This document shows, one piece after another, positions 18,594 to 55,193 of a stretch of 64,000 nucleotides of DNA. The DNA lies in assembly GCA_025060455.1 (NCBI GenBank), contig JANXBY010000003.1:34719-98718 (forward strand), in the 5' to 3' direction. Made by a program: the position numbers and the translations under genes. This stretch comes from Armatimonadota bacterium (GTDB lineage Bacteria > Sysuimicrobiota > Sysuimicrobiia > Sysuimicrobiales > Sysuimicrobiaceae). How positions within the stretch are numbered: position 1 is the first letter of the stretch; each line of letters opens with the position of its first letter. The notes beneath the pieces are model-generated. The model saw only the letters and a list, made by a program, of their open reading frames with translations. It was not told the DNA's origin and made no database searches.

Positions 18594-19808
18594 TTACGGC
18601 GGTGGCGAGGTGAACGCGAGGGCCGCGAAGCTGACGATGCCGCCCGCGGGGTCCGGAGCCTGTGCGTAGTGCAGCAGGTGGCCGTGGACCGGCTCTAGGA
18701 TCCGCAGGGCGGCGTACAGGGCGCTTGTGGCGTCGATGCGCTGCGGGTTGCCGCCTCCCGCCACCTCCCTCCAGAACCCCTCTGCGTCCCCGCGCAGCAC
18801 ATGCTCCAGGGCCCGGTGGTCGCCCGCGGAGGTGCGCAGCGCCAGGGAAGAGTCCGGCGGCTCTGGGTCGCCGAAGCGCGGCCCCACGTGGCTGAAGTCC
18901 ACCCCCACCACCACCGCGGCGCGGTCCCTCCGACTTTGGAACCCGCGGCGTAGCAACTGCACCACCCGCTCGACCTCTGGGATCCCCCTCGGGGAGCCGC
19001 GCCCCGCCCACTGCTCGAAGGCCGAACACAGGATGGGAACCACACGGACCCGCCGGCCCTGCAGGGCCGCCTGCACGAACACCGCCTGGAACTCCAGGGA
19101 GTGCTCCGCCCTGTGCACGTGTTCGGCTTCAGCCAGGTGCGGTGCTTCCTGCAGGAGTTCGGCCACCCACTCTCGATCCACGGGCAGCGTGCCCAGGGGC
19201 GTGCGGTACGGCTTCGTGCAGAGGACGAACGGGTGCGGGGCGCCGCCGTGGGCGACTCCGAGCATCAACAGGGTGGTGGCGGGCGAGCGGGCCAGCGCGG
19301 CGTATGCCCACCCATAGCAGACACCACCCCGCTGGAAGTCTACGTGGGGTGCCACCACGCCCAGGGGCGGTGTGGACGGCAGCCGCGCCGGGTCCGCGGC
19401 CCGCACGTAGGCGCCGAGCTGCCCCCGGAGGGCTGCCGGCTCCAGGGGGTAAGACTTGCCCGCGAAGTACGGCGGCCGGTCCGGTGCAGCTCGGAAGGCC
19501 TGTTCTGCCGCCTGACGCCTCGCGCGGGCCCGCTCGGTCTCCAGCAGTCCCCACCGGTCCAGCTCCTCCACGATCCGGAGCAGGTCGGACTGCAGCAGGA
19601 GCTGGCCTTGGTGGCGCCGTGCCCACTCCACCTGGACGTCCACCGCGTCCCGTTGCCCGTCCAACAACAGGGCCAGTTCCGCCACCTCTAGGGGTAGCAG
19701 CAGGGTATCCTTCACCAGCCCCTCCGGGTCGCGCACCGCCACCACGGTCCGTCCGCCCACGTGGGTGGGAACAAGGTCCAGGGCTCGCAGCCGCGGAAGG
19801 CTCGACAT
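18594..19808 (-). CDS. MEMO1 / AmmeMemoRadiSam system protein B family protein with ~100-aa N-terminal extension
   Basis: MEMO core (PPYFAGKSYP, VVAPHVDFQRGG, VDFSHVGPRFGD) preceded by an extra N-terminal region. No AMMECR1 or radical SAM partner is adjacent. Confidence 0.6.
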   Translation of the reverse strand: MSSLPRLRALDLVPTHVGGRTVVAVRDPEGLVKDTLLLPLEVAELALLLDGQRDAVDVQVEWARRHQGQLLLQSDLLRIVEELDRWGLLETERARARRQAAEQAFRAAPDRPPYFAGKSYPLEPAALRGQLGAYVRAADPARLPSTPPLGVVAPHVDFQRGGVCYGWAYAALARSPATTLLMLGVAHGGAPHPFVLCTKPYRTPLGTLPVDREWVAELLQEAPHLAEAEHVHRAEHSLEFQAVFVQAALQGRRVRVVPILCSAFEQWAGRGSPRGIPEVERVVQLLRRGFQSRRDRAAVVVGVDFSHVGPRFGDPEPPDSSLALRTSAGDHRALEHVLRGDAEGFWREVAGGGNPQRIDATSALYAALRILEPVHGHLLHYAQAPDPAGGIVSFAALAFTSPPP

Positions 19809-19873
19809 GGCTTCCAGCGCCGCATTGTACCGGGCGGGGCGGGGGGCCGGGGAAGCGGTGGCATAATGATGGG

Positions 19874-21034
19874 GTGAGCCGTCCTCTGTGGGCGATCTTC
19901 CTCACGGTGCTCGCCAACCTGGTCGGCTTCGGGATCGTGATCCCGTTGCTGCCGTTTTACGCTACCAGCTTCGGGGCGACCCCTTTTCAGGTGGGGTTGC
20001 TGTTCGCCAGCTACTCCGCCTGCCAGCTGGTGGCCGCTCCCGTGCTGGGAGCCTGGTCGGACCGATGGGGCCGCCGGCCCGTCCTGCTTCTGAGCCTGCT
20101 GGGGACCGGGGTGAGCTTCGCCCTGCTGGCGCTGGCTCGCAACCTGCCCATGCTGTTCGCCGCGCGGGTGGTGGACGGGCTTTCCGGAGGGAACGTCTCC
20201 ACCGCGCGGGCCTACATCGCGGACGTGACGCCGGACGAGGGCCGGGCGCGCAGCTTCGGCCTCATCGGCGCGGCCTTCGGGATCGGGTTCGTCCTGGGCC
20301 CGGCTCTGGGTGGGGCGCTGTCCCGCTTTGGGTACGCGGCGCCGGCGTGGGCCGCGGTGGGCCTCACGGGAGTGGCCGCGTTGCTGGCCTGGTGGTGGCT
20401 TCCGGAGTCCGTCCGTCGCGTGCATGCGGGCGCAGGGGGGTGGCGGCAGCTAGGCGCGGTGCTGTCGCGGCCCCAGCTGGGGGCGCTGCTGGGCGTGGAC
20501 TTCGCATACTGGGCCACCGCCTCCGTGTACCAGACGACCTTCGCCCTGTTCGTCCACCGGAGGTTCGGGCTGGACGCCACCCACACCGGCTACCTCCTGG
20601 CCCTTTGGGGCTCCGTGGGGGCTGCGGCTCAGGTGGGGCTCGTTGGCCCGGTGGTGAGGCGGTGGGGCGAACGCCGGGCGCTGACGGTGGGCCTGGTGGT
20701 GGCAGGGCTGGCTCTGCTGGGGGCGTCCACCACGCCGAGGCTGCCGTGGTTCGTGGCGAGCACCCTGGTTGCTGCCGTGGGGGCTGCGATCTCCAGTCCC
20801 GCCCTGGTGGCGCTCATCAGCCGGGCTGCGGCGTCCCACGAGCAGGGGGCCGTGCAGGGCGTGGCGAGCACCGTGGAGAGCCTGGGGCGCATGGTGGGGC
20901 CGGTGTGGGGCAACGGGTTGCTGGGCGTCGCAGGGGAAGGTGCGGCCTTTGGCTCCGCGGCGGCGGTGATGATCCTGGCGGGGCTGGCGGCCTCGGCCCT
21001 TCGGCCCCCTTTGCAGGCCACCGACGGGAGGTGA
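19874..21034 (+). CDS. MFS transporter (DHA1/Tet-like, 12 TM)
   Basis: MFS motifs (LPFYATSFGATPFQVGLLFASYS, GAWSDRWGRRPVLLLS). GTG start at 19874. The track ORF 19142..21034 is over-extended upstream. Confidence 0.8.
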   Translation: MSRPLWAIFLTVLANLVGFGIVIPLLPFYATSFGATPFQVGLLFASYSACQLVAAPVLGAWSDRWGRRPVLLLSLLGTGVSFALLALARNLPMLFAARVVDGLSGGNVSTARAYIADVTPDEGRARSFGLIGAAFGIGFVLGPALGGALSRFGYAAPAWAAVGLTGVAALLAWWWLPESVRRVHAGAGGWRQLGAVLSRPQLGALLGVDFAYWATASVYQTTFALFVHRRFGLDATHTGYLLALWGSVGAAAQVGLVGPVVRRWGERRALTVGLVVAGLALLGASTTPRLPWFVASTLVAAVGAAISSPALVALISRAAASHEQGAVQGVASTVESLGRMVGPVWGNGLLGVAGEGAAFGSAAAVMILAGLAASALRPPLQATDGR

Positions 21035-21040
21035 TCCCAC

Positions 21041-21601
21041 CTGGACTGGAAGGCGAAGTTCCAACAGGCACTCCCGTACGGGGAGTTCCTGGAGCGGTAC
21101 GGCACCGAGGCGCACCGGGAGCGGTGGAGCCGGGTGTACGAGGCGGTGACCGTGAGCCCCGAGCAGCAGGCGCTGCTACAGAGCTTCCAGCGGGACATGA
21201 AGCTGCTGGTGCTGGCCGGGACGTGGTGCGGAGACTGCGTGAACCAGTGCCCGGTGCTGCAGCGGATCGCAGAGTCCTCCCCGCGCATCGAGCTTCGGTT
21301 CCTGGACCGGGACGAGCACCCGGACGTGCGGGAGGAGCTGGCCATCAACCGCGGGTATCGGATCCCCATGGTGGTGTTCCTCAGCGAGGACTTCGTCGAG
21401 GTGGCGCGGTACGGGGAGCGGACGCTGTCCATCTACCGCCAGATGGCTGCGGAGCGCCTGGGGCCTGCATGTCCGGTGGGCGTGATCCCACCGGGCCCGG
21501 ACCTTCTCCGGAACGTGACGCAAGAGTGGCTCAACGAGGTGGAGCGGGTGCAGCTGCTGCTGCGGCTGTCGCCGCGCCTGCGGCAGCTCCACGGCGACTG
21601 A
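21041..21601 (+). CDS. Thioredoxin-like protein (WCGDC motif, TRP14/DUF953-like); putative CTG start
   Basis: The conserved N-terminus (LDWKAKFQQALPYGEFLERYGTEAHRERW) is encoded immediately after the MFS TGA, in the same frame. No ATG/GTG/TTG exists there. CTG at 21041 lies 6 nt after GGGAGGTGA. The first canonical start is GTG at 21134. Confidence 0.5.
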   Translation: MDWKAKFQQALPYGEFLERYGTEAHRERWSRVYEAVTVSPEQQALLQSFQRDMKLLVLAGTWCGDCVNQCPVLQRIAESSPRIELRFLDRDEHPDVREELAINRGYRIPMVVFLSEDFVEVARYGERTLSIYRQMAAERLGPACPVGVIPPGPDLLRNVTQEWLNEVERVQLLLRLSPRLRQLHGD

Positions 21602-21641
21602 GCGGAGGCGGGATGGGGTTTCAAGGCTCACGGGAGGGGCC

Positions 21642-23132
21642 ATGTTGGAGCTGATCGTGTTCACCAGCGGGGGCGTGCTGCTGGCCCTGGAGATCGTCGC
21701 GAGCCGTGTGCTGGCCCCGACCTTCGGAAACTCCATCTACGTGTGGGGTAGCCTCATCGGCGTGTTCCTGACCGCGCTGAGCGTGGGCTACTGGCTGGGC
21801 GGGCGTGTGGCGGACCGCTACCCCACCCACGGGGTGTTCTGCGGGTTGGTGTTCTTGGCTGGGCTGCTCACGGTCCCCATCCCCGCCGCAGCACCCCCCC
21901 TGTTGTCGGCCTTGGCGGCCGCGGACCTGGACAGCCGCGCGGGGCCCCTGGTGGCGGCGTTGGTGCTGTTCTTCCCCGCCAGTGTGGTTATGGGTACCAT
22001 CTCCCCGTACGCGGTGCGGTTGAGCGCCCGGTCCGTGGCCACCGTGGGCGGGACCGCGGGGCGGCTGTACGCCCTGTCTACCCTGGGAAGCATCGCGGGC
22101 TGCTTTGCGGCGGCGTTCTGGCTCATCTCGGTGATGGGAGTGCGCGAGGTGATCCTGGCCTTGGGGCTGGTGGAGATGGGCCTGGCGGTGCTGGGGCTGT
22201 TGGGTCTTCGGCGCGCGGGAGCTGCCACCGTGGCCGCCCTGCTGCTCGTGGGATCCGGCGCAGGCAGCGCCCGGCTAGTGCCACCGGAGGGCCCGGAGGT
22301 GGTGTACGCCCGGGACACCGTGTACCACCGAATCACCGTGAGCGACGAGGGGCGGATCCGCTACCTGAAGCTGGACAATTACTGGCAGAGCGCCCTGGAC
22401 CTGGACGACCCGCATCGGACGGTCTTCCGGTACGCGGACTACATGCACCTGGGGATGGTGTTCCAACCCAACCCGCAACGGGTGCTGGTGATCGGCATGG
22501 GGGGCGGGACGATCCCCAAGCGCTACGTGGAGGACTACCCACAGGTGCACGTGGACGTGGTGGACATCGACCCGGAGGTGGTGGAGGTGGCCCACCGCTT
22601 CTTCGGGGTCCCGCGGGGCGGGCGGATCCGGGCGTTCGCGCAGGACGGCCGGCAGTTCGTCCGACGCACGCAGGACCGCTACGACCACGTCCTCATGGAC
22701 GCGTACCTGCGGGACACCCTGCCCTTCCACCTGGCCACGCGGGAGTTCTTTCAGGAGGTGCGGGCAAAGCTCCGGCCTGGCGGCGCCTTCGTGGTGAACG
22801 TGATCGGTGCCCTGGAGGGGCCCCGCAGCCGGCTGTTCCGCGCGGTGTACCGGACGCTGGCGGAGGTGTACGCCGGCGTGTACGTGTTCCCCGTGGACTT
22901 CCATCCCGGGGGGTGGGCCGAGGCGCTGCGCAACATCATCGTGGTGGGCACAGACCACCGGTGGCCGCCCGGGCAGGTGCGGGCGCGGGCACAGGCGGTG
23001 CGCTCCCTGGTGAAGGTGTCGGGGTTTGATGCCGCGGTGGCGGACCTGTACACCCGTCCCATCGCCACCGACGACGTCCCCACCCTCACCGACGACTTCG
23101 CGCCCACGGACGTCCTGCTAGCCGTACGCTAG
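21642..23132 (+). CDS. Fused multi-TM membrane domain / spermidine synthase-like (polyamine aminopropyltransferase family) protein
   Basis: About 200-aa N-terminal hydrophobic domain followed by a SpeE-like methyltransferase fold (VLVIGMGGGTIPKRYVEDYP...DVVDIDPEVVEVA...VLMDAY). Confidence 0.7.
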   Translation: MLELIVFTSGGVLLALEIVASRVLAPTFGNSIYVWGSLIGVFLTALSVGYWLGGRVADRYPTHGVFCGLVFLAGLLTVPIPAAAPPLLSALAAADLDSRAGPLVAALVLFFPASVVMGTISPYAVRLSARSVATVGGTAGRLYALSTLGSIAGCFAAAFWLISVMGVREVILALGLVEMGLAVLGLLGLRRAGAATVAALLLVGSGAGSARLVPPEGPEVVYARDTVYHRITVSDEGRIRYLKLDNYWQSALDLDDPHRTVFRYADYMHLGMVFQPNPQRVLVIGMGGGTIPKRYVEDYPQVHVDVVDIDPEVVEVAHRFFGVPRGGRIRAFAQDGRQFVRRTQDRYDHVLMDAYLRDTLPFHLATREFFQEVRAKLRPGGAFVVNVIGALEGPRSRLFRAVYRTLAEVYAGVYVFPVDFHPGGWAEALRNIIVVGTDHRWPPGQVRARAQAVRSLVKVSGFDAAVADLYTRPIATDDVPTLTDDFAPTDVLLAVR

Positions 23133-25109: not shown

Positions 25110-25182
25110 CAACCGGCTGAGCACCTCCCGTCTCCGCGAAGCTGAGACCGGGGACGAAACCCCTGACCGAGGGAGGTTGGAA

Positions 25183-25548
25183 GTGCGGAAAGCGTACGAG
25201 ATCGTCTTCATCCTGCGGCCGGACCTGGACGACCAGCAGGTGCAGGCGGCCATCGACCGGGTGGCGGGTCGCATCACCGAGCGAGGCGGAACCCTCCTGG
25301 CCACGGAGCCGTGGGGCAAGCGCCGGCTGGCCTACCCCATCGCGCGCCACCGGGAGGGCTTTTACGTCCTCATGCGGTTCGAGCTGGACGGGCAGCGGGT
25401 GCAGGACCTGAAGAACGCGGTGGGGCTGCAGGAGGAGGTCATCCGCTTTCTGGTGTGTGAGGCAGTCCCCACCGCGCCGGCCGCGGTACCGGCCCAGGCG
25501 GAGGCCGTGCAGCCCGTGCCTTCTGGGGGAGGTGATGGGGGGTGTTGA
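25183..25548 (+). CDS. rpsF: 30S ribosomal protein S6
   Basis: MRKAYEIVFILRPDLDDQQV matches the S6 N-terminus. GTG lies 6 nt after GGGAGG. Acidic C-terminal tail. Confidence 0.9.
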   Translation: MRKAYEIVFILRPDLDDQQVQAAIDRVAGRITERGGTLLATEPWGKRRLAYPIARHREGFYVLMRFELDGQRVQDLKNAVGLQEEVIRFLVCEAVPTAPAAVPAQAEAVQPVPSGGGDGGC

Positions 25549-25943
25549 ACCGGGTGGTGCTGATCGGTCGCCTCACGCGGGACCCGGAGCTCCGCTACCT
25601 GCCCAGCGGACAGCCGGTGGCGACCTTCACCCTGGCCGTGGACCGGCCTTTCGCCGGCCCGCAGGGTGAGCGCAAGGCGGACTTCATCCCCGTGGTCGCT
25701 TGGCGCAAGCTGGCAGAGCAGGTGTCGCAGCACCTGGCCAAGGGCCGCCTGGTGGCGGTGGACGGCCGGCTGCAGATCCGCGAGTACGAAACGCAGGATG
25801 GGCAGCGCCGGCGCGCGGTGGAGGTGGTGGCGGACCACGTGCGGTTCCTGGACCGCAAGGCTTCCGAACCGGTGGCGGAGGCGGCCCCCGAGGAGTTCGA
25901 GCCTGCTCCCGAGCCGGAGGAAGAGGAGGACGTGCCCTTCTAG
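25542..25943 (+). CDS. ssb: Single-stranded DNA-binding protein
   Basis: OB fold (LNRVVLIGRLTRDPELRYLPSGQPVATFTLAV) and an acidic C-terminal EEEDVPF tail. Overlaps the rpsF stop. Confidence 0.9.
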   Translation: MLNRVVLIGRLTRDPELRYLPSGQPVATFTLAVDRPFAGPQGERKADFIPVVAWRKLAEQVSQHLAKGRLVAVDGRLQIREYETQDGQRRRAVEVVADHVRFLDRKASEPVAEAAPEEFEPAPEPEEEEDVPF

Positions 25944-55091: not shown

Positions 55092-55099
55092 GAGGACCT

Positions 55100-55193
55100 G
55101 GCGGAGGGGGTGGGATTCGAACCCACGGGCGGGGTTTTTGCCCCGCCACGGTTTAGCAAACCGCCGCCTTGGACCGCTCGGCCACCCCTCCGG
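55100..55193 (-). tRNA. tRNA-Ser (anticodon GCU), class II with long variable arm, CCA encoded
   Basis: Minus-strand sequence GGAGGGG-TG-GCCGAGCGGTCCAAGGC-G-GCGGT-TTGCTAA-ACCGT-[long variable arm]-GTGGG-TTCGAAT-CCCAC-CCCCTCC-G-CCA. A TTGACA -35 lies upstream. Confidence 0.85.

Follow-up and report, generated by a model that had tools for sequence, protein, structure and literature searches.

The locus described here lies in a 64,000-nucleotide (nt) stretch of contig JANXBY010000003.1 (positions 34,719-98,718; assembly GCA_025060455.1), referred to below as the window, and all positions are counted within it. The host is presumably an uncultured, thermophilic, hot-spring-type member of a Sysuimicrobiota-like candidate phylum. 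Two plus-strand genes meet at the locus. The first (19874..21034) runs from GTG 19874 to the TGA at 21032-34 and encodes a Tet(A)-like, MFS_1-type transporter of the major facilitator superfamily (MFS) with 386 amino acids (aa) and a Pfam MFS_1 E value of 1e-68. Its start was taken from the sequence and agrees with the 386- or 387-aa calls at three related loci (L166, L165, and L085; L numbers denote loci and P numbers proteins used in the comparison). Since the NCBIfam Tet(A/B/C) model scored 219 bits, far under its cut-off of 475, the protein was not called a tetracycline pump. The second gene (21041..21601) belongs to the Thioredoxin_9 family (PF14595) and encodes 186 residues, including a WCGDC active-site motif, followed by a stop codon. 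On comparative and structural-model grounds, this full-length product is predicted to be translated from a CTG codon at 21041..21043, a reading to which we assign a probability of roughly 0.75.

The DNA across the junction reads GAC GGG AGG TGA (21032-34) TCC CAC CTG (21041-43) GAC TGG AAG, which in single-frame translation gives TDGR, a stop, and SHLDWKAKFQQALPYGEFLERYGTEAHRERWSRV. After the TGA, which is in the thioredoxin-like frame and 6 nt 5' of the CTG, the frame reads SHLDWKAKFQQALPYGEFLERYGTEAHRERWSRVYEAV and continues until the TGA at 21599-21601; a protein initiated at CTG 21041 would begin (M)DWKAKFQQALPYGEFLER. The sequence-only reading had proposed that a conserved thioredoxin-like N terminus follows the MFS stop directly and in the same frame, and the sequence, the PF14595 match, and an alignment of 21 homologues all agree with this. 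It had also found no ATG, GTG, or TTG ahead of GTG 21134, and the mechanical list of open reading frames (ORFs) likewise has none in frame between TGA 21032 and that codon. GTG 21134 (21134..21136) is codon 32 of the gene (Val32) and opens an ORF at 21134..21601 with a 155-aa product, 31 codons too late; the predicted loss of conserved residues from such a start was thus borne out, the figure being exactly 31 rather than about 30. CTG alone, among the three codons ahead of the conserved DW, is one base from ATG. The CTG had further been said to stand 6 nt past a strong Shine-Dalgarno (SD) sequence, and the coordinates agree: GGGAGGTGA occupies 21026-21034, its GGAGG core ends 9 nt 5' of CTG 21041, and pairing with the 3' tail of 16S rRNA extends the match even further, to GGGAGGTGATC at 21026..21036, which lies within the last MFS codons and includes the MFS stop.

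The positions at which homologues start were examined in a search of a large protein collection, which returned 2,301 matches, of which 120 were listed. Among these 120, most are 186 aa long with the first residue aligned to CTG 21041, a minority of 187 to 197 aa start a few codons earlier, and all are stand-alone proteins of 155 to 197 aa. In 80 species-representative genomes, the codon for residue 1 was ATG in 46, GTG in 4, and TTG in 1 (51/80 canonical), and CTG was found there in none. In 28 of the 29 noncanonical representatives an ATG or GTG lies 1 to 8 codons upstream, within five codons in 27 of them, so that homologues in 79 of the 80 genomes start at the codon equivalent to the CTG or 1 to 8 codons before it. 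The homologues therefore do not start at the equivalent of GTG 21134, the outcome that had been named as fatal to the CTG proposal.

The residues upstream of GTG 21134 are conserved and are not a chance reading of noncoding DNA, as judged from the alignment. The PF14595 match (105.7 bits, with the cut-off at 25; E value of 2e-30) covers residues 15-131 in the CTG-started numbering and profile positions 6-121 of 129, beginning 17 residues ahead of GTG 21134. In the 21-homologue alignment, W3, L11, Y13, L17, R26, and R28 never vary and F16, G21, H25, and W29 are almost as constant, and the proposed check of the N-terminal alignment thereby showed conservation of the 31 upstream residues. The CxxC redox motif W62-C63-G64-D65-C66, at the start of the first core helix, is also invariant in these 21 sequences. 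Identity of the window protein to full-length homologues was 82-94%.

An AlphaFold model of the 186-aa form (predicted local distance difference test score [pLDDT] of 79.5; predicted template modelling score of 0.80) contains helices at residues 3-9, 13-20, and 23-35 with block-mean pLDDT values of 89-96, and codon 32 falls inside the third. Its best structural match was PA1234 of Pseudomonas aeruginosa (1Z6N; Foldseek E value of 1e-7, 180 aligned columns, and a template modelling score of 0.74 normalised to the 166-residue target), which was also the best sequence-profile match (E value of 2e-8). In both proteins a helical segment at the N terminus comes before the thioredoxin core, an arrangement that holds for the window protein only if translation starts at or near 21041; on the model, part of the family fold would be missing from a 155-aa product. 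The two, both uncharacterised, differ in that sequence identity is ~20%, the active-site motif is WCPDC in PA1234 and WCGDC in the window protein, and the latter ends in a longer helical tail at the C terminus, in which the motif LRLSPRLR is conserved.

The same junction was then compared among the nearest relatives, which are metagenome-assembled genomes labelled Armatimonadota and Candidatus Tepidifontimicrobium thermophilum (phylum Candidatus Sysuimicrobiota). Two designs were seen. In the first, GAGGAGGTGA-CGGAGGCG-TTG (L002-L005, L086, and L090), an in-frame GTG overlaps the MFS stop as GTGA and gives a 190-aa protein, with a TTG at the position of residue 1 of the 186-aa form. In the second, GGGAGGTGA is followed by six nucleotides and the start codon, which is ATG in L007 and L089 and GTG in L006, and the junctions of L088 and L096 (GCGGAGGTGA-N6-GTG) are nearly identical to it. 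The window has the second design with CTG as the codon, GGGAGGTGA-TCCCAC-CTG; the closest layouts are GGGAGGTGA-ACGGGG-ATG in L007 and GGGAGGTGA-CGGCAC-GTG in L006, from which it departs at the start codon's first base and within the 6-nt spacer, which is not conserved. Across the close relatives the codon aligned with the CTG is ATG in L007, GTG in L006, L087, L088, and L096, and TTG in L005, L086, and L090. The first alignment, made with relatives of the 190-aa type (P0001), had indicated a 2-nt deletion destroying the in-frame GTGA-overlap start; this was dropped as a sign of damage, L006 and L007 having the same TGA-6 nt-start arrangement with GTG and ATG.

The CTG itself recurs. Lineage A comprises the window, L001 (SRR15826899), and L166 (SRR15826900), which share 99% nt identity and an identical junction (L001 differs from the window by 11 mismatches in 1,293 nt). 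Lineage B comprises L085 (VAPR01001136.1), L165 (JGI 3300038392), and L167 (SRR7882662), is about 8% apart from lineage A (92% DNA and 94% protein identity), and has its first canonical in-frame start at codon 24. In all six assemblies the junction reads GGGAGG TGA NCCCAC CTG GAC TGG. A further CTG occupies the same start codon in L093 (1477-1503; VAPR01000936.1), where the layout is GGAGG-TGAAAACGCC-CTG with 10-nt spacing. As L093 sits inside the TTG clade of a neighbour-joining tree, its CTG appears to have arisen independently, from TTG; the case is less clear-cut, the MFS stop there being in a different frame and an in-frame GTG without an SD lying eight codons upstream. Start codons at this junction therefore include ATG, GTG, TTG, and, twice independently, CTG, in about ten species-level lineages.

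Pairing energies with the anti-SD sequence were calculated with a generic bacterial 16S 3' tail. The duplex of GGGAGGTGATC reached -22.0 kcal/mol, a value attained by 0.03% of the 20-mers in the window, and the corresponding energies were -22.0 kcal/mol for lineage A and -21.0 kcal/mol for lineage B, compared with -16.0 to -17.3 kcal/mol for canonical-start relatives. The window SD was the strongest in the set compared (L006, L007, L086, and L085). With few sequences and a generic tail behind it, the stronger SD in the CTG lineages looks like compensation for a weak codon, of the kind reported for GUG and UUG starts (PMC5622118). An internal control is provided by ssb, where GGAGGTGAT-N5-GTG at 25542 (an upstream element also recorded as GGGGGAGGTGAT-N5-GTG) has the same motif and spacing as the thioredoxin junction. 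The ssb gene (GTG 25542..25943) overlaps rpsF (25177..25548) by 7 nt. When the window was scanned for GGAGG followed by an open frame lacking a canonical start, only the site at 21027 had a correctly spaced near-cognate CTG; the scan gave no evidence of a genome-wide CTG habit, and it is noisy, with long open frames everywhere at a GC content of 71%, and too crude to exclude one. RNA folding of 20991-21090 was unremarkable (-38.3 kcal/mol; z = -0.2).

We propose that the initiator tRNA reads the CUG through a first-position mismatch, so that methionine rather than leucine would occupy position 1, and that the 11-nt SD would hold the 30S subunit in register at the CTG. The two genes are co-oriented, with a spacer of +6 nt and no promoter- or terminator-like site between them (none was found in a scan of 19700-21700), and this distance lies within the range of -8 to +10 nt given for termination-reinitiation (PMC10666635). 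Because only 6 nt separate the MFS stop and the CTG, such reinitiation is probable: ribosomes terminating on the MFS gene would restart on the CTG and supply much of its initiation, and the output from the CUG would presumably be adequate. Known pairs of this kind resemble the junction in being on the same strand with comparable spacing (PMC6728339, PMC10666635, PMC12548453) and in having the SD in the 3' end of the upstream gene, and the relatives' 4-nt GTGA overlap at the same junction fits the same pattern. They differ in using canonical restart codons and in that their products often belong to a single complex, a relationship not known between an MFS transporter and a thioredoxin-like protein; coupling here is predicted from the layout. 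A report of reinitiation at noncanonical codons (PMC4648390) concerns a eukaryotic expression system and was not used as bacterial evidence.

Several points weigh against initiation at CTG 21041. In Escherichia coli, initiation at CUG is about 1-2% of that at AUG (10.1101/063800), and since the codon is thus roughly 50-100x weaker, output could be very low. Reinitiation in E. coli retains proofreading by initiation factor 3 (IF3) (PMC2268962), so coupling may not relax the choice of start codon. The duplex energies depend on a generic bacterial 16S tail and not on the host's own. Finally, divergence between the two CTG lineages is uneven: the first 93 nt (window 21041-21133 against L085 1501-1593) contain 12 differences compared with 31 in the other 468 nt, an approximately twofold rate, and the ratio of nonsynonymous to synonymous substitution rates (dN/dS) for codons 2-31 is 0.42, with 4.5 synonymous and 7.5 nonsynonymous changes and only 12 changes in all. 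Some relaxation of the N terminus in the CTG lineages is possible on these figures.

The main alternative builds on that divergence. It holds that translation starts at GTG 21134, yielding 155 aa, and that the upstream 93 nt are a decaying remnant left after mutation of the start codon. This GTG is the sole canonical in-frame start, automatic gene finders chose it in five public assemblies, the window has a GGAG 4 nt 5' of it, and the twofold faster change ahead of it comes with a dN/dS of 0.42 against 0.11 for codons 32-186. The latter value indicates that the gene is expressed and under selection and must be translated from somewhere. For codons 2-31, comparable canonical-start pairs gave dN/dS values of 0-0.34, and the faster N-terminal divergence was absent in three such pairs. 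On a rough hand estimate from the 12 substitutions, neutrality gave a binomial p of about 0.1-0.3, with the family norm equally not rejected, and the spread of the changes over codon positions (3/2/7) was not significant. The five amino acid changes in codons 1-31 nevertheless all fall at family-variable positions, every invariant residue is kept, and none of the six assemblies has an indel or stop in the first 93 nt, a pattern that does not suit a remnant. Val32 is a nearly invariant internal residue that is encoded by GTG in most canonical-start relatives too, and the duplex upstream of it, at -9.9 kcal/mol, is background (17% of 20-mers reach it) and is similar in most canonical-start relatives, which demonstrably start elsewhere. 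Translation from GTG 21134 would also cost the protein two helices and most of a third, all of which are modelled with confidence and also occur in 1Z6N and the Pfam domain, and a dead start leaves unexplained why the SD-6 nt-CTG module has been kept and even strengthened. We therefore reject GTG 21134 as the main start and consider this alternative unlikely.

A start at a second, internal CTG (21089..21091, codon 17) is improbable. It is suggested by the public record of the gene, a cluster of six proteins (P0122, P0014, P0121, and P0123-P0125) of which five are 155 aa from the GTG and one, P0122 (NCBI MCS7234426.1 / MDW8155023.1), is 170 aa; none of the six uses CTG 21041. P0122 equals methionine plus window residues 18-186 exactly, and from this identity its pipeline appears to have used CTG 21089, which in the window has GGGGAG 3 nt upstream. 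That spacing is just 3 nt, however, and the duplex only -7.4 kcal/mol; lineage B and L093 have CTC as codon 17, and so a CTG here is not common to the lineages that lack a canonical start. Beginning there would also drop the invariant W3, L11, and Y13 and two helices. CTG 21089 was accordingly rejected as the real start.

The sequence-only reading had also entertained stop-codon readthrough, with TGA 21032 read through or decoded as an amino acid and the thioredoxin domain forming a C-terminal extension of the MFS protein. The two ORFs are in the same frame with only the stop and two codons between them, and L006, L007, and lineage B share this in-frame layout. In L002-L005, L086, L090, and L093, however, the two genes do not share a frame and either overlap (GTGA) or abut (TGA plus 7 nt), so an MFS-thioredoxin fusion is not a conserved feature, and no fused homologue occurs among the 120 matches listed (155-197 aa). 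The two bridging codons are unconserved (S-H, A-H, R-H, and T-G), TGA acts as a normal stop in this DNA, as where the thioredoxin gene ends (21599-21601), and a strong SD with start-like spacing would be left unexplained. Readthrough is in our estimation more improbable still than the internal CTG.

Initiation at GTG 21031, followed by a programmed +1 frameshift, is very improbable. This GTG forms a GTGA overlap with the MFS stop and corresponds by homology to the GTG at which the 190-aa, P0001-type relatives start in frame, and its distance from the CTG is 10 nt, not 12. The intervening sequence GTG ATC CCA C|CTG offers no slippery site for +1 re-pairing, in L093 the distance (11 nt) would call for the reverse shift, no spacer separates the GGAGG core from GTG 21031, and the GTG frame remains open for hundreds of codons, so that nothing forces a shift. 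L006 and L007, moreover, show the TGA-6 nt-start arrangement working with an ordinary start at the CTG position. That the missing start is an artefact, through a small indel or a miscalled base in the stop or start, is conceivable in metagenome-type data with 71% GC and a short C run just 5' of the CTG, but the junction is identical in the window, L001, and L166, which differ elsewhere, and the same design is found in L085, L165, and L167 at 92% nt identity; its recurrence in six independent assemblies from two lineages led us to discard a sequencing error, of the stop or otherwise, as the least credible explanation of all.

Initiation at CTG 21041, the leading idea of the sequence-only reading, was thus favoured by every comparative test that gave a clear outcome. 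As to why a CTG should be tolerated, one suggestion is that start-codon identity is nearly neutral at this junction: the place of restart would be set by the strong SD embedded around the stop and by the ribosomes arriving from the MFS gene, leaving the first base of the codon free to drift. In a broader version, the candidate phylum would discriminate less against CUG than does E. coli, by way of IF3, for instance, or of the initiator tRNA's anticodon stem. Both are offered tentatively, and we consider them unlikely. If the broader version were true, standard gene callers would truncate many genes of the phylum.

Natural CTG starts are rare but documented in bacteria, in plasmid RepA, in rpsL of Deinococcus-Thermus with peptide evidence, and in Deide_03051 (PMC2830850), and for each reconstructed start, switches from canonical codons to CUG have been put at about 1e-5 to 4e-4 (PMC5622118). 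The closest parallels are rpsL and the folK-like Deide_03051, chromosomal genes of GC-rich, partly thermophilic lineages in which a conserved N terminus can be encoded only from the CTG and the CTG is kept across species; for Deide_03051, as for the thioredoxin-like gene, reannotation was argued from fold elements that would otherwise be missing (PMC2830850). The rpsL start differs in having mass-spectrometry support and in being fixed phylum-wide (PMC2830850), whereas the CTG described here is known from sequence and appears recent and lineage-restricted, replacing ATG, GTG, or TTG in two or three species-level lineages. RepA of an E. coli plasmid, which starts at CTG, and infC, which starts at AUU/AUA, likewise combine a near-cognate codon with the normal initiation machinery, but the infC start is a regulatory device for IF3 autoregulation (PMC2830850). 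Nothing suggests a regulatory role for the weak codon at the thioredoxin junction, and its turnover looks more like tolerated drift.

The surrounding genes follow a conserved order, consisting of a Memo-like gene on the minus strand, the MFS gene, the Thioredoxin_9 gene, a gene for a 496-aa spermidine-synthase-like membrane protein, DUF951, and YchF, and this order is shared by the window (18594-23132) and loci L002, L165, and L166. In the window the spermidine-synthase-like protein is encoded at 21642..23132 on the plus strand (from the ORF list), and in L002-L004 and L165 this neighbour carries the Pfam domain Spermine_synth. Judging by gene order, the transporter may be linked in function to the redox protein and the polyamine-synthase-like protein. 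GTG 19874 of the MFS gene has no SD, and 6 nt 5' of it (window 19859-19876) is a conserved TGGCATAAT resembling an extended -10 box, which lineages A and B and L002 retain and which L093 has in a shifted position. The simple promoter scan gave no full -35/-10 site. From this layout the MFS-thioredoxin mRNA may be leaderless. The only tRNA gene in the window is a tRNA-Ser (GCT) on the minus strand at 55099-55191.

The locus is a well-supported new comparative example of a CTG start in a candidate phylum. It changes no principle, because bacterial CTG starts are already documented; what is mildly unusual is that CTG recurs at one junction and that the SD is strongest where the codon is weakest. 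With ATG, GTG, TTG, and CTG occupying the same homologous position behind a shared ribosome-binding site, the close relatives form a natural allelic series, which suits tests of compensation between SD and start codon and of whether termination-reinitiation relaxes codon choice. For the family itself the finding is mainly a matter of annotation: current records give 155 or 170 residues, while the evidence presented here points to 186 with a CTG start, and shortened versions without the missing fold elements would mislead work on the structure and function of this uncharacterised redox family.

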